Position numbers and translations under genes: made by a program
NCBI GenBank assembly: GCA_951812505.1
Contig: CATOSI010000001.1
Location: forward strand, 956,745 to 1,020,744
Reading direction: 5' to 3'
Length of the DNA stretch: 64,000 nt
Origin: an uncultured Dehalococcoidia bacterium
GTDB taxonomy: Bacteria > Chloroflexota > Dehalococcoidia > Lucifugimonadales > UBA1123
In this document: positions 33,591 to 64,000 of the stretch, piece by piece
How positions within the stretch are numbered: the first letter of the stretch is position 1
Layout of the letters: each line of letters begins with the position of its first letter
Notes under the pieces: model-generated
What the model was told of the DNA's origin: nothing
Databases searched by the model: none
What the model saw: the letters and a program-made list of their open reading frames with translations, nothing else

Positions 33591-33634
33591 GGAGCCAACG
33601 GGCGGATTCGAACCGCCGACCTGCGGTTTACGAA
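33591..33634 (-). repeat. att direct repeat: copy of tRNA-Thr 3' half
   Basis: 44 bp identical to 43145-43188 (ggagccaacg...tttacgaa). Confidence 0.93.
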
Positions 33635-33699
33635 CCCCTGGCAGCTCCCTCAATCCTGGTCAATACGGGTCATGGGGCTGATTGGCAAGAAATGTCGTT

Positions 33700-35126: not shown

Positions 35127-36581
35127 ATGATAGTCGCCTGTGTACTCATAACCCACTTCCGCGCGAAGGCGGAGCTGATCAGGCGCCCGAAACTGGAGGG
35201 TCGCGCGTTCGCAATATCGGACAGGGCCCGCCCCGGCTCGCTCGTCATCGACCGCTCTCCGGCGGCGCGAGACGTCCTCACCGGCATGACGCTCCAGCGT
35301 GCCGTGTCCACTGTGTCCGACCTGACGATTCTGGACGCGGATGAGCCATACTATGAAGCCTTATTCGAGCGTCTGCTCGACTCGCTCGGACGCGTGAGCG
35401 ACATGGTGGAGGCCGGGGGCCTGGGACAGGCTTACGTGAGGCTGGACGGTCTGGAGGGGATGTACGGGGGCGAGGCTGGGGCGGTGTCTGCGCTGCTCGA
35501 CGCCGTTCCCGATCATCTCAATCCGCGAGTGGGAGTGGGCGGCTCCAAGTTCCCGGCTTACGTTACCGCCCGGACTGCCGGGCCCATGAGAGCGGCGAGA
35601 GCGCCGGACGACGTGCCCGCTTTCCTCGCGCCGATGTCCATCGAGATCCTTCCGGTGTCGGACCACCTGAAGGCTGCGCTCGCTCGCTTCGGAATGCGTA
35701 TCATCGGAGACGTGTCATTGGTCGGACAGGCCGCGATGTTCGACCGCTTCGGGAGAGAGGGCGCGACTGCCTGGGAACTCTCCATTGGAGTGGACCCCAG
35801 GCCGTTCGTTCCTATGAGTGTCGAAGAGTCCGTCGTCGAGTACACGACGCTGCCGTTTTCCACGACCTCGACAGAGATGTTGCGCGTGGGTCTGGACATG
35901 CTGCTCAGGCGCGCGTTCGCAAGACCCGCGCTGAGGAACAGGAGCGTGGGAGCGGCTACCCTCATGTCCTCGACCTCCGACGATGAGCCCTGGAAGCTCC
36001 ACGTCCGTTTCAGGACTCCTATAGAGCGCTGGGAGCGAGCCTCCGAGCTTATGAGAGAACGCCTCGTGACAGAGCCGCCGGCACATCCCATCGACGACCT
36101 GTCGCTGACCCTCTCGGACCTCGGGGGCGAGACCGGCGTCCAGACGGGACTGATCAGAGACGCGAGGGAGAGCGGGCGCGAGACGCTCATCGGTGTGGAC
36201 AGGCGTCTTTCGGCGCGCTTCGGCGGATCCCGCGCGCTTCACAGGGCGGTAGAGGTCGCACCCTGGCATCCGGCGCCGGAGATGCGTTCGCTACTGGTGC
36301 CTATAGATCCACTGGCTTCTGACTCCGTCCGCGCCCTGCATATGCCGGCTCCGGCGGAGGTGAGGGAAGCCGGCAGAGGAGGTGAGCGTGGGCCCACCTC
36401 ACTCTTCCGGGACGGCGAGTGGCGGCCCATAGCGCGGATAGAGGAGCGCTGGACGTTCGACCTGTGGTGGCTTCCGCAGCCGATGTCTCGTTCGTACTAC
36501 CGCGTGGAGTCTGAGGACGGAACTCTGCATACCCTGTTCCGCGACGAGGCGACCGGCCAATGGTACAGCCAGGCCGCGTGA
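35127..36581 (+). CDS. imuB: ImuB-like inactive Y-family polymerase
   Basis: Y-family layout (GMTLQRA, VGVGGSKFPA, LARFGMR.IGD) lacking catalytic acidic motifs; C-terminal ERW.FDLWW...RSYYRV. Confidence 0.8.
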   Translation: MIVACVLITHFRAKAELIRRPKLEGRAFAISDRARPGSLVIDRSPAARDVLTGMTLQRAVSTVSDLTILDADEPYYEALFERLLDSLGRVSDMVEAGGLGQAYVRLDGLEGMYGGEAGAVSALLDAVPDHLNPRVGVGGSKFPAYVTARTAGPMRAARAPDDVPAFLAPMSIEILPVSDHLKAALARFGMRIIGDVSLVGQAAMFDRFGREGATAWELSIGVDPRPFVPMSVEESVVEYTTLPFSTTSTEMLRVGLDMLLRRAFARPALRNRSVGAATLMSSTSDDEPWKLHVRFRTPIERWERASELMRERLVTEPPAHPIDDLSLTLSDLGGETGVQTGLIRDARESGRETLIGVDRRLSARFGGSRALHRAVEVAPWHPAPEMRSLLVPIDPLASDSVRALHMPAPAEVREAGRGGERGPTSLFRDGEWRPIARIEERWTFDLWWLPQPMSRSYYRVESEDGTLHTLFRDEATGQWYSQAA

Positions 36582-36589
36582 GTCGTGTC

Positions 36590-39500
36590 ATGTCGGACCG
36601 CTACGTCGAGCTTCACGCGAAGAGTTTCTTCAGTTTCGGAAAGGGCGCTTCCCATATCCACGAGCTTGCGACCCGGGCCGTGGACCATGGGCAGACTGCG
36701 CTCGCGCTGACCGACACCAACCTGTGCGGCGCGCTCGAGTTCGCGAACCTGGCGGGCACGCTGGGTCTGAAGCCCATCACCGGCGGCGAGATCACGCTCT
36801 CGGACGGCTCGCGCATAACGCTGCTGGCGAAGTCCAGGGCCGGGTACTCCAACCTCTCTCAGCTTCTCACGTTCGCCAACCGAAGCGACCGGCGCGAGCC
36901 GAGGCTCAATGTGAAGTATCTTCCCAGACACGCCGATGGTCTTATCATGCTGACCGGCGGCAGGGACGGCAGACTGTCCAGACTGCTCGTCGAAGGACGA
37001 TATGGCGAGGCCGGGGAATGTCTGAAGCAGGCTATGGACTGGTACGGCTCCGACTCTGTGTATGTCGAGATCCAGAGGAACCTCCTGGAAGGTGAGGCGC
37101 GCCGCAACAGGCGGCTGGCCGCGCTCGCCGGTGAGATGGGCGCTCCGTTGGTCGCGACGAACGGGGCGCTCTACCACACGCCTGAGAGATACAAACTCCA
37201 GCACGCGCTGGTGGCCATAAGACACAACTCGACCATCGACCGGAGCCTGGAGCACATCCTGCCCAACGACCAGTTCTATCTGAGGTCAGAGGCGGAGATG
37301 AGAGCGCTGTTCTCCGATATGCCGCAGGCCGTATCCAACACGGTCAGGATCGCCCAGCGATGCGGCTTCGACCTGTCTTCGGACCTGGGCTATACCCTTC
37401 CGGAGCCCGACGTGCCTGAGGGATACACGCCGATGAGCTATCTCGTGAGACTGTGTTACGAGGCCGCAGTGAGAAGGTACGGCTCGATAACCGAGCGAGT
37501 GGAGAGCCGGCTCCAGCAGGAGTTCCGGCTGATAGAGCGGAACGGGATGGCGGGCTTCCTGCTGCTGTACCGCGAGATCGCACTTCTAGCGCGGGAGATC
37601 ATGGAGGAGCGAGGGCTGGTCGGGCCTGAGGTAGCACTCGAGGAGCGTCCGCCGGGCAGGGGGCGCGGCTCATCGGTCGCGCTTCTGGCGGGCTATCTGA
37701 TAGGCATAAGCCACGTGGACCCGCTGAAGTGGAACCTGACGCTGGAGAGGTTCATATCGGAGGAGGCGGGCTCGCTCCCAGACATAGACCTGGACTTTCC
37801 CAGGGCCATCAGGGACGAGCTCATCGAGAGGGTGCACAGGAGGTTCGGCCCCGCCTTCGCGGTCCTGACCGGGGCGGTCTCGACCTACAGGGGTCGAGGT
37901 GTCATACGTGATCTTGGAAGCGCTCTTGGACTACCTGAAGAGCGGCTGAAGTTACTGGCGGGACGGGTGCATACCGATGACATGGGCGTTCTGTCTGAGA
38001 GAATGAGCGAGATGCCCGAGTTCTCAGGCAGTCTGAAGGCTACGGGCTGGAGGAACTTCGTCGAACTCGCTCCGCAGCTCCTGGGCGCTCCGAAGTCGCT
38101 GGGCCAGCACGTGGGCGGGATGATCCTGAGCAGTTCTCCGATACCCGAGATGGTGCCGGTGAGGGCGGGAGCGATGCAGGGTCGCTACATAATGGACTGG
38201 GACAGGGACTCAGTGGCCGACGCCGGATTCGCCAAGATAGATATCCTGTCTCTGCCGGTCCTGGACCAGATAGAGGAGGCTCTGGACCTGATAGAGAGGA
38301 GCGGGAGGGAGCGGCCCGACATGAGCCGCATAGACCCCGGGGACACCGACGTGTACGACGTGATAAACGAGGGGAGGTGCAAGGGGGTGTTCCTATTACA
38401 GTCGCCAGCTCAGCTCAAGCTGGCGCGCAGACTGCTCTCCCGCAACCTTCTGGACCTCGCATACCAGGTGGCTCTGATAAGACCCGGGGTGGGAGCGGCT
38501 GAGAGCGCGGTGAGTAGGTTCGTCGACAGGTACAGATACGGTGCGGAGTGGGAATACGACCATCCACTGGAAGAGCGAGCCCTAGAACGAGGTTACGGCA
38601 TCATCGTGTGGCAGGAACAGGTGGTACAGCTTCTGATGGACGTCGGAGGACTGAGCGCGTCGGAGGCGGACGGGGTAAGGCGCGCCTTCGCCAAGTCCAG
38701 CAACAGCCACCTGATGGCGATGTACAGGCGGCGCTTCCTGGAAGGCGCACTGAACAACGGAGTGGACAGGGAGACCGCGCTGAAGGTGTTCGAGAAGGTC
38801 AACGGGCAGTACATGTTCCCGGAATCGCACTCCCACGCCTTCGCTATAACCGCGTACCAGGCGGCATGGCTCAAGCGCCACCATCCTCTGGAGTTCTTCG
38901 TCGCGCTGATGAACAACCAGCCTATGGGCTTCTACCCCATGGAGACGCTCAAGCAGGACGCCAGGCGGTTCGGCGTCCCGTTCCTGAACCCCTGCGTCAA
39001 CCGCAGTCAATCGAAGTGTGTTCCAGAGAACGGCTCAGCGTTGCTGGGGCTGGGGCTCGTGAAGGACGTTGGCCCGGAGTCGGCAAAGTTGATCGTGGAG
39101 GAGAGGGAGGCACGCGGTCCATATATCGGCGCGGGGGACCTGGTGAGGCGTACCCGACTGAGGCCGCAGGCGGTGGAGTCACTGGTCATGGCCGGAGCGT
39201 TCGACCGCATAACGCCCAACCGCAGGCAGTCGCTGTGGGACGCGGGTCTGTATGCCAGTCCGAAGAGAAACGGTCAGGCCACGCTGCCGCTCTCGATGGA
39301 GGACTCTATCCCAAACCTCGCCGACTTTTCGGAGGCCGAGCGGATGGCGGGCGAGTACCGTACGATGGGCATCTATCCCAGGGGGCACCTCATGCAGTTC
39401 GTCAGGCCAGGTCTGCCTTCCGCGGTGATGACCTGCGGGGAGGTGGAGCGTCTGGGCGACGGGGACTTCGCGGTGGTCGCGGGATGGCCTATAGCCAGGC

Positions 39501-39736
39501 AGCATCCGAAGGGGCGAGACGGGACTATATTCGTTACCATCGAGGACGAGACCGGGGACACGCAGGTGATACTATGGCCCGGGGTCTATGCACGGTACCG
39601 CAGGGAACTCAGCAGCCAGGTGGTACTCGTACGGGGGACTATATCCGCTTGGGACGGCACGGTGAACCTGATAGCCTCGGAGGTGCGAGCGATCCGGTCG
39701 GGTGTGCGGATGCCGCGGTCCCACGACTGGCGCTGA
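36590..39736 (+). CDS. dnaE2: Error-prone DNA polymerase DnaE2
   Basis: PHP YVELHAKS.FSF..GAS, GRGSS, PDIDLD, GQHVGG, FPESH, NNQPMGFY, terminal SHDWR; alternative GTG start 36578. Confidence 0.93.
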   Translation: MSDRYVELHAKSFFSFGKGASHIHELATRAVDHGQTALALTDTNLCGALEFANLAGTLGLKPITGGEITLSDGSRITLLAKSRAGYSNLSQLLTFANRSDRREPRLNVKYLPRHADGLIMLTGGRDGRLSRLLVEGRYGEAGECLKQAMDWYGSDSVYVEIQRNLLEGEARRNRRLAALAGEMGAPLVATNGALYHTPERYKLQHALVAIRHNSTIDRSLEHILPNDQFYLRSEAEMRALFSDMPQAVSNTVRIAQRCGFDLSSDLGYTLPEPDVPEGYTPMSYLVRLCYEAAVRRYGSITERVESRLQQEFRLIERNGMAGFLLLYREIALLAREIMEERGLVGPEVALEERPPGRGRGSSVALLAGYLIGISHVDPLKWNLTLERFISEEAGSLPDIDLDFPRAIRDELIERVHRRFGPAFAVLTGAVSTYRGRGVIRDLGSALGLPEERLKLLAGRVHTDDMGVLSERMSEMPEFSGSLKATGWRNFVELAPQLLGAPKSLGQHVGGMILSSSPIPEMVPVRAGAMQGRYIMDWDRDSVADAGFAKIDILSLPVLDQIEEALDLIERSGRERPDMSRIDPGDTDVYDVINEGRCKGVFLLQSPAQLKLARRLLSRNLLDLAYQVALIRPGVGAAESAVSRFVDRYRYGAEWEYDHPLEERALERGYGIIVWQEQVVQLLMDVGGLSASEADGVRRAFAKSSNSHLMAMYRRRFLEGALNNGVDRETALKVFEKVNGQYMFPESHSHAFAITAYQAAWLKRHHPLEFFVALMNNQPMGFYPMETLKQDARRFGVPFLNPCVNRSQSKCVPENGSALLGLGLVKDVGPESAKLIVEEREARGPYIGAGDLVRRTRLRPQAVESLVMAGAFDRITPNRRQSLWDAGLYASPKRNGQATLPLSMEDSIPNLADFSEAERMAGEYRTMGIYPRGHLMQFVRPGLPSAVMTCGEVERLGDGDFAVVAGWPIARQHPKGRDGTIFVTIEDETGDTQVILWPGVYARYRRELSSQVVLVRGTISAWDGTVNLIASEVRAIRSGVRMPRSHDWR

Positions 39737-43143: not shown

Positions 43144-43218
43144 TGGAGCCAACGGGCGGATTCGAACCGCCGACCTGCGGTTTACGAAACCGCTGCTCTA
43201 CCACTGAGCTACGTTGGC
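43144..43218 (-). tRNA. tRNA-Thr(CGT)
   Basis: GCCAACGTAGCTCAGTGGTAGAGCAGCGGTTTCGTAAACCGCAGGTCGGCGGTTCGAATCCGCCCGTTGGCTCCA; full cloverleaf, encoded CCA. Confidence 0.97.
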
Positions 43219-43276: not shown

Positions 43277-44434
43277 CTAACCAAAATCTTCGAGTTGATT
43301 CTCGAATACCTCCGCCGAAGCGACGTCCATCTCCCTCAGAACGTGAGAGTAGATGTCCAGCGTGGTCGCAATTGTACTATGTCCAAGCCTCTCCTGTACA
43401 ACCTTCGGATGAACCTTGGCATTCATCAGAATGGTAGCGTGCGCGTGGCGGGAGTCGTGCAGTCGCACGTTCGGAAAACCCGCTTTCGTCGCGAAGCGCT
43501 TGAACGCATGGGTGACTGAAGAAGGATTGTAAGGCATTCCCTTGTCGTTGCAGAACAGGAAGCAGTCCTCTGTCCACGGAATGCCGAGGGCCTCGAACAT
43601 CCGCTGCTGATCCTTCATATGATAGTACAGGATATAGTTTATATTTGTGCTCAGAGAGACTAGCCTGCGGCTAGTTTCGGATTTAGGATCTCCCTCGACG
43701 CTGCCTCCCCTGACCGCCACCCTGGCCCTGTCCACAGTCAGGCAGTACTTCTCAAGGTCGATGTCGCGCCATCTCAGACCACACAGCTCTGAACGTCTAA
43801 TGCCGGAGTAGAAAGCCAGGCAGAAGGCCGCAAGCCACGGCGTACCTACTGTCTCGTCAAGGATTAGGTCTACAATCTCGGCGGTTACGATCTGAGGTCT
43901 GAATCGAGGAACTCTCGGTTTCTTCACCCTCTTGGCGGGATTGGACGCCATCTCGCCCATGTCGACCGCGTGCTCAAGCGCCTTCGAAAGGACGCGGATG
44001 TGGCCTCGCACGGTCGAGGGGGACAGTCCGCCATCTCCGCTCACCCTACCGGACTTTAGCATCCTGGAAGCGTACTTCTGTATGTGCTGGGGACGAAGGT
44101 CCTGCATGCGGCGACGTCCCATGTGGGGAATCAAATTTCGGTCGATGATTCGGATGTACTCTCTCGCAGTGGAGGGGCGGACGTTATGGGCCACGTAGTC
44201 CTCCTTCCACTCTTCCAAGTACTTGGCAAGTGTCTTCCTGCTGGATTGTACGTAGGTTCTATCCTCGATGGCGCTGATTACTTTTCGCATCGCGCTCTCC
44301 GCCTCATTCTTGGTTCCGAAGCCGCGCTTCATTTCCTGTATTCTCTTTCCGGTCACCTCATCGCGCCCCATGTCCACAATGTAATGCCAGGACGTTCCCC
44401 GCTTTCCCTCACGTTTTCCCACATGACCTCTCAT
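43277..44434 (-). CDS. Tyrosine integrase (ICEBs1/Tn916-like) with N-terminal arm-binding domain
   Basis: GIRRSELCGLRW, LHDSRH, ERLGHS...TLDIYSH; N-terminal W.Y..D.GRD..TGKR.Q..RGF.TK.EA. Confidence 0.95.
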   Translation of the reverse strand: MRGHVGKREGKRGTSWHYIVDMGRDEVTGKRIQEMKRGFGTKNEAESAMRKVISAIEDRTYVQSSRKTLAKYLEEWKEDYVAHNVRPSTAREYIRIIDRNLIPHMGRRRMQDLRPQHIQKYASRMLKSGRVSGDGGLSPSTVRGHIRVLSKALEHAVDMGEMASNPAKRVKKPRVPRFRPQIVTAEIVDLILDETVGTPWLAAFCLAFYSGIRRSELCGLRWRDIDLEKYCLTVDRARVAVRGGSVEGDPKSETSRRLVSLSTNINYILYYHMKDQQRMFEALGIPWTEDCFLFCNDKGMPYNPSSVTHAFKRFATKAGFPNVRLHDSRHAHATILMNAKVHPKVVQERLGHSTIATTLDIYSHVLREMDVASAEVFENQLEDFG

Positions 44435-60012: not shown

Positions 60013-60271
60013 TTTCTTCTCCTCAGATAAGGAATATTGTTGACTGGAGAATCACGGGATGGACAGCCCAGTCTGTTTTCCTGTGTGTAATATAATCCCG
60101 GACTAATGAAGTGACAACCGGCGTCCCTATAATGGCGCTCCAAGAGAGATGAAATGCAGGCGGAATCACAATATACCTGACAAAACTACGCGGACTCGGT
60201 ACTAAGCGAGAGGACGTTGTACTTTCGAGAAACGGATCGCCCTATCACTCGGCGGGCAGGAACCGTATTGA

Positions 60272-60565
60272 GACGATTCTCTACTGCGAACATTAACTTA
60301 GGCCGCCTGCTTAGGGCGGAGTCTTGGGCCCCAAATCTCAAAAACCCTTTGGCCCTGCGACTCGGGAGAATCGTCGGTGCCGGATACGCCGTGTAGCTTC
60401 AGACCGCAGTGGAGGTAGGGACTGTGTCTCTGTTCGCCAGTCGCGAACTGTCGGCGTGCACGGTCCGAGAGTTCCGTGCACGCCCCGGCACCCGTCATAT
60501 GGGGGAGATGCGGGTGTTACCCGGCTTCCTTCGCCGCCATATCGGTTGATGACGGGGTGTGCCAT
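60272..60565. other. Highly base-paired non-coding region (candidate ncRNA or ssDNA structure)
   Basis: Perfect stems 60272-81/60366-75, 60376-83/60485-92, 60453-63/60474-84 plus further hairpins. Confidence 0.5.
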
Positions 60566-60605: not shown

Positions 60606-60810
60606 TCACGCTTTATTGTCCATTGACGCCGCGGTTTCCCCACAGGAAGGACAGAATCCTGGGTGGTGATATACGGTCGCCCCGCAGAACTCACACCTCG
60701 ATGTCGAACTCGCCAGTGTAGCAGACGACTTTCGCAAGTTCTTCGGACATCTCTTCGGTCGTCTTGACTGCGTCTGTCGATTCGGTGATCTCTCGCGTCT
60801 CAACACCCAC
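60606..60810 (-). pseudogene. Small Zn-ribbon ORF, apparently frameshifted
   Basis: ..EEMSEELAKVVCYTGEFDIE shifts into CEFCGATVYHHPGFCPSCGE. Confidence 0.35.
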
Positions 60811-60903
60811 TTCGGATAGTCTTGCACATCACAGAACCGTTGTACTATATAAATCATACAAGAGCAAATATCCGGCTGGAAACCTGGCCGGTCGGACCCT
60901 CTC

Positions 60904-62410
60904 CTTATGGCGGGACAGTCTGTCCGACTGCGAATTTCCAGGAAATGAACATTTCCCCCCGGGACAGGGTGTCTGGACAGGACTGCGTAGCTGAATGGGT
61001 GTGTTTTTCCTGCTGCGCCCCAACCTGCGCGTGAATAGCATGGAGAGGGACTTAGCAGGAATAGTGGGGGAGGACAGGATGTCTGGAATGGGCGTTGGAA
61101 ATTTGGAGGGGAACGTAGGGGACAGGTTGTCTAGGGCAGAGAGTGAACATGAGGCCGCCTCCGAGTCGCATGTCGTCATGGACGCCGTGTGAATCGCACT
61201 TGTCTTAGGAAGGTGGGCGATACGGTCGCCTAGATGGTCGCCGTACCCGCGGGCGCTGTGAGCGTTCTGGCGACCATGCGCGGACTGGACGTCGGACCAT
61301 CCGTTGCGACCATCAAGCGCACCGCACTGAATTTCGACAAGGCGCCAGTGCCCCCGTGTCGTCGAATGCGGTTCCCCCGTCCGTTGCGTGCCTTATGCTG
61401 CGTTTCCACTCTTATGGCGGGACAGTCTGTCCGACTGCGAATTTCCAGGAAATGAACATTTCCCCCCGGGACAGGGTGTCTGGACAGGACTGCGTAGCTG
61501 AATGGGTGTGATTTTCCTTCTGCGCCCCAACCTGCGCGTGAACAGCATGGAGAGGGACTTAGCAGGAATGGTGGGGGAGGACAGGATGTCTGGAATGGGC
61601 GTTGGAAATTTGGAGGGGAACGTAGGGGACAGGTTGTCTAGGGCAGAGAGTGAACATAAGGCCGCCTCCGAGTCGCATGTCATCATGGACGCCGGGTGAA
61701 TCGCACTTGTCTTAGGAAGGTGGGCGATACGGTCGCCTAGATGGTCACCGTACCCGCGGGCGCTGTGAGCGTACTGGCGACCATGCGCGGACTGGACGTC
61801 GGACCATCCGTTGCGACCACCAAGCGCACCGCACTGAATTTCGACACGGCACCAGTGCTCCCGTGTCGTCGGATGCGGTCCCCCCGTCCGTTGCGTGCCT
61901 TATGCCGCGTTTCCACTCTTATGGCGGGACAGTCTGTCCGACTGCGAATTTCCAGGAAATGAACATTTCCCCCCGGGACAGCGTGTCTGGACAGGATTGC
62001 GTAGCTGAATGGGTGTGTTTTTCCTTCTGCGCCCCAACCTGCGCGTGGCCAGCGTTAAGAGGAACTTAGCAGGAAAGGTGGGGGAGGACAGACTCGCTGC
62101 AACGGGTGATGGGCGGTCCTGTGGGAACGCAAGGGCTGGACTGTTCAGGACAGAGGGCAACGCGAGCTCGCTCTCATATCGTATGTTGTCATAGAGGCCG
62201 CGTGAATCGTAACTGTCTTGGGAATGAGGCGGTACGGTCGCCTAGATGGTCGCCGTACCCACGGGTGCTGTGAGCGTTCTGGCGGCAGTGCGCAGAAGGG
62301 ACGCGGGCCCATCCATTGCGGCTATCGAATGCGCCACGCCGAACGTCGATTCCGCGGCGTCGGATGCGGTCTCGTCCGGCTCACACGCCTTATGTCGAGA
62401 TTCCGCCTTC
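60904..62410. repeat. Three tandem 507-bp repeats
   Basis: cttatggcgggacagtctgtccgac starts at 60904, 61411, 61918; copy 3 diverges after ~62046 but stays alignable. Confidence 0.95.
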
Positions 62411-63114
62411 CGGCGTGGTCGAGCCCCCGGCTCGCTTGGATAGGACCCGGTGGCGTTGAGGGACCGCATTGGTCCACTGGGGCAATTCCATTCTGGCCTG
62501 GCCGCAAGTGGTTCATGCGGTTGTTTCTGCGGACAGCAGCAACGCTTCGAACCATATGAGACCCGGGCCACCGATGGATGCTATCGCGAACTCTCGTAAA
62601 CCGGGCCGGCATTGACGCTGAGCACTTCCGAAGACGGAGTGCGTGTCGAATTCAACAGCTTGTGCAGGTTCTGGGATGACATTGGGGTCTCCAGGATGTT
62701 CTCGGTCTGGCGTCCGCTGCAGTACTGGTACTGCCGAACGTATCCCGGGAGATCGGCATGACTGGCGGTCCGCTCAAGGCCTGTTCGACTTAGTGGAACA
62801 CGAATGTCAACAAATATTGAGCGACCGGTCGTCGGCCAGATTTGAGGGAGCTGTTCACTCCACAGGGCGTTCGGACGGTGCGGACGCATGGATCAGTCGG
62901 CTCGAATCCGAAGCTGCGAAAGGTACATTGTCGCTCGTGGAGCAGCCTCATGTGCGCCGTCTTGGGACGGCAGAGGACCAGTAGTGTAGGGCGTTTCAGT
63001 TGGGACATCTGCCGGGTGTGGGACCACCGAAAAGCCCCCTCGAAAATCAGCGACGGTCAGCTATCTGTGTCATATTCGAAACCATAGATGAACCGCTGTT
63101 CAGGAGGTGGCGAA

Positions 63115-64000
63115 ATGATCTCTGATAAGCAGGCTGAGATAATCGATAGACAGACGCACGCCCCGTTCATGACGGTCGATGACATGGTTACTATTCATAA
63201 GTTTGGCCGCTCTCCTCTGCGCAGGCAACTTGACAAGATGGAGCGGGGGGGATTGGTCTGCCGCGTGCCGCACGCTCTCGAGGGGCGGAATGCGTCGCAG
63301 CGCTATGCGCCGACGGGCAAGGGCGTCATAGCGCTGGCGGACAAGAGGGGTGTCCCCATTGAGGACATGATGCGCCGGCCAGGCGGGACGGGGCGGGGTC
63401 TTGCCGTCTTCCAGCGGAGGCTGGATATCCTGGCGACTGTCTACAAGGTCGCCGGGGCCGTCGCCCGCTGCTACGACGAGCCGGCAGTGCGCCTGCGCCT
63501 GACGGGTGGCCGCCCCCTCGATGCCGTGATCATGTTGCCGGACCGTCCGTACAGCGTGGGCCTGATGGTGAACCGTCCCTGCATATCGTACAGATCCTGG
63601 GAGTGGCGGCTGAGGGTCTACGCGGACGAGGAGACTGAACGTCCGTCGGTTCTGCTCGTTGTGTCCCCCGACCCCCTGTCGGATCACGACGTGGCACGCC
63701 GAGTTGCTCGTAACTGCGGCGAACTGGCCCTGACGGCGTCGCTCGAGGAGGTTGCCGATCCCTTTGAAGAGGTGTGGAGACAGCCAAAATGGTACGACGA
63801 GCGTGCGTGGAGCCTCCCGTTCGCATTGGACAGGGTACCACAGAAAGTCGTAACCGCTTACGAACCTGAGGTCCAGGACTACAAACGGGCGGCACTGCCG
63901 CCGACCGTGCGTGATACCACGACTGTTCTCACCCAGGCGGAACGTCGGACGCTGTATGTGATAGCCGACTGGCTGCTGGCGAAGGAAAGCTTCGTCGTGG
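63115..64000 (+). CDS. Long ORF truncated by window end; wHTH-containing, Replic_Relax-like
   Basis: AGGAGGT RBS; open to the end: MISDKQAEII..PFMT..LRRQLDKMERGGLV..QRYAPTGKG..RRLD..VYK..PLDAVIML; a second LT.AE.R.L..IADW unit begins. Confidence 0.6.
   Translation, partial: MISDKQAEIIDRQTHAPFMTVDDMVTIHKFGRSPLRRQLDKMERGGLVCRVPHALEGRNASQRYAPTGKGVIALADKRGVPIEDMMRRPGGTGRGLAVFQRRLDILATVYKVAGAVARCYDEPAVRLRLTGGRPLDAVIMLPDRPYSVGLMVNRPCISYRSWEWRLRVYADEETERPSVLLVVSPDPLSDHDVARRVARNCGELALTASLEEVADPFEEVWRQPKWYDERAWSLPFALDRVPQKVVTAYEPEVQDYKRAALPPTVRDTTTVLTQAERRTLYVIADWLLAKESFVV

Follow-up and report, generated by a model that had tools for sequence, protein, structure and literature searches.

We have analysed a 64,000-nucleotide (nt) stretch of the genome of an uncultured Dehalococcoidia bacterium (assembly GCA_951812505.1, contig CATOSI010000001.1; hereafter, the window), near the right end of which three head-to-tail units with a period of 507 bp form a non-coding array (60904-62406; repeat search of the window). 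The array occupies the larger part of the 2.2 kb that separate two divergent genes, a zinc-ribbon open reading frame (ORF) on the left and, beyond a unique spacer, a gene of the Replic_Relax family on the right. An original prediction, made from the letters of the window, had placed three 507-bp copies at 60904-62410 upstream of a putative Rep/relaxase gene. The period and the number of copies were reproduced by repeat search and MAFFT alignment; the start at 60904 stood, whereas the end moved to 62406 by nhmmer. The downstream gene product indeed matched the relaxase family PF13814 (2.4e-8). The main features of the locus are the following.

60606 to 60857, minus strand: zinc-ribbon ORF of 83 amino acids (aa) in the left flank, pointing away from the array (ORF list, Pfam scan)
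60904 to 61410, plus strand: unit 1 (repeat search, alignment, nhmmer, unit-1-specific read contig)
61411 to 61917, plus strand: unit 2 (repeat search, alignment, unit-2-specific read contigs)
61918 to 62406, plus strand: unit 3 (repeat search, MAFFT alignment; 3' end by nhmmer)
62407 to 63114, plus strand: unique non-coding spacer, with the palindrome GCAGTACTGGTACTGC at 62719 to 62734 and AGGAGG at 63102 to 63107
63115 to 64000, plus strand, running on to 64806 past the window: gene of Replic_Relax, a MOBC-type relaxase family, 563 aa (Pfam)
about 64799 to 65638, overlapping the end of the Replic_Relax gene: helix-turn-helix (HTH)/coiled-coil ORF, 279 aa

The repeat search returned two repeat families with three copies each, D1 (300 nt) and D2 (122 nt), with start-to-start spacings of 507/507 and 507/505, respectively. 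Tandem Repeats Finder reported no tandem repeat, because its maximum period (500) is shorter than the unit. The flanks held no partial additional unit, and the search of the 3.8-Mb source genome (G000) revealed no second place for the unit. The possibility that copies 1 and 2 are an assembly artefact, raised together with the original prediction, was checked on contigs from a public short-read run, which may be the very sample behind the genome assembly. These contigs matched the unit-1-specific stretch 60974-61093 (depth 4.7) and the unit-2-specific stretches 61481-61600 and 61571-61819 (depths 7 and 8.7) with no other letters, and did the same for the unit 1 to unit 2 junction (61283-61429) and the unit 2 to unit 3 junction (61790-61936), with a flank depth of ~5 in the same run. 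Since the copy-specific stretches and both junctions were all recovered, an assembly duplication was ruled out. The depth of the unit-2-specific contigs (7-8.7, window 61481-61819) exceeded that of the unit-1-specific ones (4.7-5.2) and of the flanks (~5), which could be low-coverage noise or reflect cells with an additional unit-2-type copy.

Units 1 and 2 differed at 16 of 507 positions (MAFFT alignment and counts). Between units 1 and 3, the first 130 positions showed 3 differences and the other 377 showed 105 (P about 8e-15), unit 3 being ~28% diverged past the first ~130 bp yet collinear throughout, with deletions of 1, 1 and 14 nt. The first 100 bp carried none of the 16 differences between units 1 and 2 (P about 0.03). 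We refer to the near-invariant ~130 bp, which hold sites 1 and 2 described below and a 16-bp palindrome, as the head of the unit, and to the rest as its body. At the 16 positions that distinguish units 1 and 2, unit 3 sided with unit 1 at 6 and with unit 2 at 7, giving seven derived changes in unit 1 and six in unit 2. As unit 3 agrees now with one and now with the other, both young copies have diverged independently. The contrast between 16 differences in 507 positions and the ~28% divergent body of unit 3 agreed with the old and the recent duplication proposed originally. The head has been kept uniform by selection or by repeated gene conversion, between which the data cannot tell.

The dominant feature of the units is a 13-bp palindrome, GGACAGNNTGTCY, with the core GACA-N3-TGTC. 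In units 1 and 2 it lies at unit positions 10, 59, 169 and 217, whereas unit 3 has it at 10 and 59 only, which makes ten sites, all located by pattern search.

60913 to 60925, unstranded: site 1 of unit 1, GGACAGTCTGTCC (the identical 13-mer occurs at two loci of another genome, G133)
60962 to 60974, plus strand: site 2 of unit 1, GGACAGGGTGTCT
61072 to 61084, plus strand: site 3 of unit 1, GGACAGGATGTCT
61120 to 61132, plus strand: site 4 of unit 1, GGACAGGTTGTCT
61420 to 61432, unstranded: site 1 of unit 2, GGACAGTCTGTCC
61469 to 61481, plus strand: site 2 of unit 2, GGACAGGGTGTCT
61579 to 61591, plus strand: site 3 of unit 2, GGACAGGATGTCT
61627 to 61639, plus strand: site 4 of unit 2, GGACAGGTTGTCT
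61927 to 61939, unstranded: site 1 of unit 3, GGACAGTCTGTCC
61976 to 61988, plus strand: site 2 of unit 3, GGACAGCGTGTCT
60934 to 60956, unstranded: overlapping palindromes ATTTCC-A-GGAAAT and GGAAATG-AA-CATTTCC, between sites 1 and 2 of unit 1 (palindrome search)
61222 to 61313, unstranded: second motif block of unit 1, with ACGGTCGCC and ATGGTCGCC as direct words, and GGCGACCAT and GCGACCAT as inverted words

Exact matches to GGACAGNNTGTCY, counted by strand, numbered 13 in the window, all of them inside the array. When one mismatch was allowed there were 17 matches against 2.41 expected, a number reached in none of 100 shuffles. The whole genome contained 26 strand matches, 13 of them in the array, and the 13 outside it were no excess over the 17 obtained with the reversed control pattern. 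The shorter word GGACAG, which the original prediction had described as repeated several times, occurred five times in each of units 1 and 2, on the strand of the downstream gene.

The two palindromes reported at the start of all units, GGACAG-T-CTGTCC and GGAAATG-AA-CATTTCC, were recovered in each of the three, with the overlapping pair between sites 1 and 2 lying at 61441-61463 in unit 2 and 61948-61970 in unit 3. The second motif block, in the body, consists of two direct and two inverted GGTCGCC-type words (GGTCGCC/GGCGACC). Its equivalent in unit 2 lies at 61729-61820, and in unit 3 the direct pair alone survives (62234-62256). The two stems noticed previously, ATGGTCGCC/GGCGACCAT (61234/61269) and ACCGCA..TTCGAC/GTCGAA..TGCGGT, were found in unit 1 and were imperfect in the other units, as had been stated.

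We have then asked what kind of DNA the units are. Each of the six frames contained at least three stops across the array. A unit length of 507, that is 3 x 169, a minus-strand frame with a single stop per unit and the recurrence of small ORFs in all three units would be compatible with three copies of a small or decayed protein gene. However, the substitutions between units 1 and 3 were spread over the three codon phases without bias (39/38/31), and an open frame of at least 168 codons arose in 666 of 2000 dinucleotide shuffles. The array's single long open frame (168 codons) had no relatives among 1.84 billion representative proteins, and none of six ORFs in or beside the array had a Pfam match (five lie wholly or partly inside, and one, 62643-62984, lies in the spacer). 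With tblastx, nothing was found in the source genome at E <= 1e-3 except one spurious 31-residue row, and the comparison with all fetched loci gave a few marginal rows in the array (E 0.003-0.004; L034, L015). The array is non-coding, in line with the earlier statement that no convincing protein is encoded; both the coding and the decayed-gene reading were rejected, and we consider an origin in a protein gene extremely improbable.

The non-coding character of the array also stood out against other repeats of the same genome. Its open-frame fraction (0.35) was the second lowest among 37 tandem or near-tandem duplicated loci, of which 22 had a fraction of 0.99-1.0 and lay inside one open frame; the lowest value (0.30, C5:230197) belonged to a pair of adjacent duplicated genes. 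Two further tandem repeats of this genome, at C3:954588-955286 (361 bp, 95%) and C2:375950-376408 (149 bp, 98%), have periods that are not multiples of three and partial open frames, and may be further non-coding arrays.

A tandem array of three non-coding RNA (ncRNA) genes, each possibly with its own promoter in the conserved head, had been offered as an alternative. The unit length would suit large ncRNAs, and a conserved head with a variable body could correspond to a promoter and a transcript. Yet Rfam 15 gave no match for the array at E up to 1, and the minimum free energy of the unit was that of shuffled sequences (z 0.29 on the plus strand and -0.31 on the minus strand). RNAalifold kept 5 of 166 predicted pairs by two-sided changes, with many pairs broken and an unfavourable covariation term of +2.28, a test that is weak because there are only two effectively distinct sequences. 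Moreover, the units contained no sigma-70-like promoter and one weak terminator-like site, and the stems mentioned above were not kept in unit 3. Hence, the ncRNA alternative was not supported and we regard it as very improbable. The proposal of a hairpin module acting as single-stranded DNA fared no better, with z from -0.1 to -1.6 for segments folded as such.

Many copies of one palindrome within 1.5 kb are also what a vegetative replication origin or a partition centromere could look like, with the palindromes bound, as iterons or as centromere sites, by a Rep or ParB-like protein that belonged to a once autonomous element. In plasmids, centromere and iteron arrays (F sopC, R1 parC, iteron origins) hold many copies of a short protein-binding palindrome in 0.5-1.5 kb, and F sopC is similar to the array in size and site number. 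The repeat unit of such arrays measures 11-43 bp and not 507 bp, and iteron origins combine phased direct repeats of 17-22 bp with an AT-rich region and a Rep gene. The palindromes of the array are spaced irregularly and are not phased direct iterons, its GC content is 0.595-0.60 throughout with no AT-rich segment for unwinding, and Pfam scans of 39 neighbouring ORFs revealed neither ParA/ParB nor classical, iteron-type Rep families. An origin or centromere thus seemed improbable, despite the fact that papers cited by PMC3424549 tie Replic_Relax to plasmid replication.

The gene adjoining the array on the right starts at 63115, behind AGGAGG. Its 563-aa product matched PF13814 with 34.8 bits (cut-off 25.3 bits), and a domain scan also detected a MarR-like winged HTH (wHTH). 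Residues D439, E456 and E458 were invariant in 14 homologues of 24-96% identity. The AlphaFold model (pLDDT 81) showed two successive wHTH plus alpha/beta modules, and the invariant D...ExE residues were confined to the second of these two nuclease-like modules. A fold search of the model against the PDB had no match reaching E <= 0.001 and pointed weakly to MarR-type wHTH regulators and wHTH/CARF-nuclease proteins. By its sequence, this gene is a member of the MOBC/PF13814 relaxase family with a conserved nuclease motif. Passages of PMC3424549 place PF13814 in the PD-(D/E)XK superfamily, usually fused to HTH domains, and a table in PMC5357655 lists it as the MOBC relaxase superfamily.

MOBC relaxases offer the closest comparison with a known system. 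According to the relevant section of the review PMC12857230, this barely studied class has one prototype, TraX of pAD1, which has a winged HTH at its N terminus and binds to five direct repeats located 70-120 bp from the nick site (nic); the section describes the class as binding a site far from nic, with no covalent intermediate seen. The array and its neighbour resemble the MOBC origins of transfer (oriT) of pAD1 (TraX) and CloDF13 (MobC) in that a PD-(D/E)XK-type relaxase-family protein with a wHTH is encoded beside non-coding DNA, and in that this DNA has several same-strand motif repeats and inverted repeats. The five direct repeats bound by TraX (PMC12857230, same section) find a counterpart in the five gene-strand GGACAG words of the unit. 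In contrast, the unit here is 507 bp long and tripled, neither a type IV coupling protein (T4CP) gene nor a type IV secretion system (T4SS) gene was found in the source genome, and, unlike a usual MOBC-type protein, the product is a double module with two wHTH plus nuclease-like halves.

To look at the palindrome beyond this locus, we have scanned 401 genomes from the order for pairs of GGACAGNNTGTCY sites separated by 25-55 nt. Paired matches were obtained in the source genome (five), in G133 (two loci) and in G365 (one locus), and the reversed control gave none in the 401 genomes. The two G133 loci are copies of one 1.5-kb module, 86% identical, each with four GGACAG words ~25 nt before the start of a 280-aa HTH/coiled-coil gene. 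Two of the four words extend to GGACAGNNTGTCY, one being the identical 13-mer GGACAGTCTGTCC, and the second GGACAGNNTGTCY lies 43-56 nt off on the same strand, as in the array. At one of these loci (L051, G133:C9:68400-88399), the sites lie in the intergenic region between the two divergent gene sets of a conjugative element. To its left follow TrbL/VirB6-like, VirB4-like and T4CP genes and then a Replic_Relax gene; to its right, the HTH gene, a DnaG-type primase, SSB and a methyltransferase. The same palindrome pair thus occurs in a T4SS/T4CP/Replic_Relax control region, which makes the unit likely to be control DNA of that lineage.

The G365 match falls in a non-coding stretch on a 2.4-kb contig (L046, G365:C322, 1330-1860), beside a zinc-ribbon membrane ORF. 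This stretch is itself a tandem duplication with a period of 258 and 94% identity, starting with GGGACA clusters and a GGGACACCCTGTCCC palindrome. The 83-aa ORFs lying left of the two control regions were compared as possible kin and proved unrelated.

The HTH/coiled-coil gene family (270-290 aa) was present in 141 of the 401 genomes, often in several copies, and we have examined 30 upstream regions (loci L053-L082; G133 loci L051 and L052). The gene strand carried 62 GGACA words and the opposite strand 5, with at least two copies in 18 of the 30 regions, so that GGACA repeats oriented with the downstream gene are common to these regions and the array. The regions contained two or three sub-repeats of 56-60 bp, each composed of GGACA(G/A), 6-7 nt, a CAGCTACGAAAGT-like box and a palindrome. 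The closing palindrome varied by protein clade (for example TTCCGTTTTCGGAA, TTGCAGAAGTGCAA and GTTCCCTCGGAGGGAAC), which is not evidence of co-evolution because kin share both features. Replic_Relax and HTH genes stood divergently, 9.4-10.8 kb apart, at seven places in six genomes. At two further loci the Replic_Relax gene came directly after a T4CP-like gene, and one of these loci also had a large serine recombinase. We know of no description of this T4SS/T4CP/Replic_Relax element family, no literature search having been made.

Four copies of one palindrome together with further palindromes, in non-coding DNA between divergent genes, resemble a cluster of binding sites for a dimeric HTH protein. 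Taken with the findings in G133, this led us to read the array as protein-binding control DNA of the operator or oriT type, amplified in tandem and belonging to a degenerate or mobilizable derivative of a conjugative element. It is the reading we favour, and we would give it an even chance of being correct. The oriT/origin half of the module originally proposed is thereby supported indirectly, through a palindrome pair that marks a T4SS/T4CP/Replic_Relax control region in another genome, whereas its ncRNA half is not.

In the model we propose, each unit would be putative protein-binding control DNA of a conjugative or mobilizable lineage. The head would present two 13-bp GGACAGNNTGTCY palindromes around the 16-bp palindrome, and the body two more GGACAGNNTGTCY sites and the GGTCGCC/GGCGACC block. 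Dimeric HTH proteins would dock on these sites and thereby control transcription, assemble a DNA-processing complex, or both; the candidate binders would be the wHTH domains of the Replic_Relax protein or an HTH regulator. At least two tandem duplications by unequal recombination, one old and one more recent, may have produced the array, with selection or gene conversion holding the head near-identical. The control DNA would here be joined to a relaxase-like operon that lost, or never had, transfer genes. Protein binding, its partner, a nick site, transcription and any effect of the amplification are predictions of this model.

Several observations weigh against this control-region reading. 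The first concern the unit itself. It had no DNA relatives in 60 related genomes or in 400 genomes of the order, and no blastn match in plasmids or phages (tblastn likewise gave none); the pattern of the head had no match in genome, viral and metagenome contig collections. The BLASTN check suggested originally thus returned no further copies, whether in the source genome, the 60 relatives or the 400 genomes. Within the array, sites 3 and 4 of unit 3 have decayed (alignment), and the spacings of 49, 110 and 48 bp between sites show no helical phasing. The island around the array is full of insertion sequence (IS) fragments, so the module may be defunct.

The second group concerns the relaxase loci. 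A non-coding array was present at none of 27 other Replic_Relax loci (8 viewed across 12 kb of sequence, 19 together with flanks of 1.5 kb); among these homologue loci the array is not a cis site that travels with the relaxase gene, and the linkage between the unit and the 63115 gene family that had been envisaged was not observed. In the closest genomic homologues (44, 40 and 39% identity), similarity to our locus was limited to the gene itself and a portion of the following ORF, and the regions upstream of the closest homologue genes had no palindromes or repeated words in common.

The third group concerns the HTH-family control regions. A profile built from them had no match in the array or elsewhere in the source genome, and local alignment with the array beat shuffles at 2 of 28 loci, namely one with z 3 and the G133 locus, whose z of 5.5 is driven by the very 13-mer by which it was found. 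With no profile match and alignments near those of shuffles, homology of the unit to these control regions is not established. Beyond the motifs there was no alignable similarity, and the regions are single-copy, about 300 bp long, built of 56-60-bp sub-repeats and, unlike the array, placed before an HTH/coiled-coil gene, a family with no member in the source genome. Kinship of the 279-aa ORF to that family was not supported, as the resemblance was confined to a 21-residue HTH segment (BLASTP E 0.011) and hhalign gave probabilities of 11.6% and 1.3%. A T4CP query from a related locus also had no match in the source genome, where PF10412 gave a single borderline match, elsewhere (C3:293316); this genome is 96% complete, so absence of a T4CP is not proven.

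Two candidate signs of kinship were discarded. The composite motif GGACAR-N5-10-CTRYGRRA, which contains the CAGCTACGAAAGT-like box, had no match in the array. A loose collinearity, found post hoc, links AGCTGAWT, ~78-83 nt, GGACAG, ~48-56 nt and GGACAG. Its shorter form AGCTGAWT-N60-100-GGACAR occurred once per unit, but also at six other places of the genome and in only 4 of the 30 family regions, and we therefore treat it as a post-hoc resemblance only.

Much of this would also suit a functionless relic, in which an intergenic stretch of a decaying island was duplicated twice, the sites are fossils and the heads are alike by gene conversion alone. The surroundings consist of IS fragments and accessory genes, the flank DNA is patchy in the genus (10 of 29 other genomes), the source genome yielded no cognate T4CP or T4SS gene, the unit is an orphan among the 60 relatives and the 400 genomes of the order, unit 3 has lost two of its four sites, and no homologue locus keeps such an array. 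Nevertheless, the seven and six derived changes of units 1 and 2 show that the array has persisted for long, and 500-bp direct repeats normally collapse by recombination over such a time. The head was invariant in the young and the old comparison alike, and the relaxase-like gene is intact, with its catalytic-type residues invariant. We consider the relic explanation possible but rather unlikely.

In a bolder form of the control-region reading, the array would serve a minimal mobilizable element as an oriT/operator platform in several copies. The element would have copied the control-region palindromes of the widespread family with PD-(D/E)XK (MOBC-like) relaxases, and the extra copies would capture or titrate the regulator or relaxosome of a family member entering the cell, the amplification being adaptive. 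This we find clearly unlikely.

As a repeated-site cis region beside a relaxase-family gene, the array would be of a known sort, and its unusual aspects are the 507-bp tandem amplification and the orphan status. If the control-region reading is true, the array provides a naturally amplified and experimentally handy binding substrate for a Replic_Relax/MOBC-type protein, from a lineage in which no characterised conjugation systems are known. If it is a relic, the array is merely an unusually long-lived tandem duplication. The element family of the order, with T4SS, T4CP, Replic_Relax, HTH/coiled-coil, primase and SSB genes, may outweigh the array in importance, and the clade-specific palindromes of its control region offer a ready system for studying the evolution of element-specific recognition.

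We have also surveyed Replic_Relax genes among the relatives. Homologues occurred in 23 of 61 genomes, often in multiple copies and with up to 12 matches per genome; some relatives had 10-12. Two closer proteins to the 563-aa product were retrieved, P0002 (96% identity, encoded on a 12.6-kb contig) and P0003 (58%). Protein-seeded scans of metagenome and genome contigs gave no confirmed locus. Repeats seen at L033 and L044 were discarded as related arrays, as they lie inside long ORFs of surface-type proteins.

Immediately left of the array, a promoter-like site (60882-60853) abuts unit 1. A DNA homologue of the left flank was found in another genome (G015), with no array alongside. The 3.1-kb left flank had patchy matches only, in 10 of the 29 other genomes of the genus. 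Within it, a ~100-bp stretch (60216-60318) recurred at 78-95% identity in G003 (three places), on contig C3 of the source genome and in G011, as a small repeat dispersed through the genus. To the right, the perfect palindrome GCAGTACTGGTACTGC of the spacer lies ~380 bp upstream of the Replic_Relax gene and may be a separate operator. The 279-aa ORF, in which an HTH-like segment is combined with a long coiled coil, had relatives only in G010 and G015, and was followed by a membrane-protein ORF, IS607- and IS4-type fragments and SbcCD-like genes.

The wider neighbourhood agreed with the accessory or mobile setting suggested originally, in view of the IS fragments, the patchy flank and an SbcD-like gene for which the 29 other genomes of the genus gave no match. 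The absence of this gene from the 29 relatives indicates that the accessory region runs well past the window. Beyond the island lie the SbcD/SbcC-like genes together with two large UvrD/AddAB-like ones (~67637-78989 in window coordinates; L004 8637-19989). Upstream of the array are Mrr-, NucS- and GIY-YIG-type nuclease genes, a gene for a VWA protein, and fragments of IS110, IS66, IS21 and IS5.

Further upstream lie a tRNA-Thr gene (43144-43218) and a tyrosine integrase gene (43277-44434). A 51-nt direct repeat of the 3' part of the tRNA-Thr gene was detected at 33591-33640 and 43145-43195 (96% identity). Since the partner copy lies at 33591-33640, this repeat bounds a different element, at 33.6-43.2 kb and left of the array, which does not bear out the assignment of the array to an integrative element. 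The ~9.6-kb insert between the repeats has no integrase within it. It encodes an ImuB-like protein (IMS family), a DnaE2-like polymerase (35127-39736) and an MFS transporter, and resembles a mutagenesis cassette carried by an integrated element.

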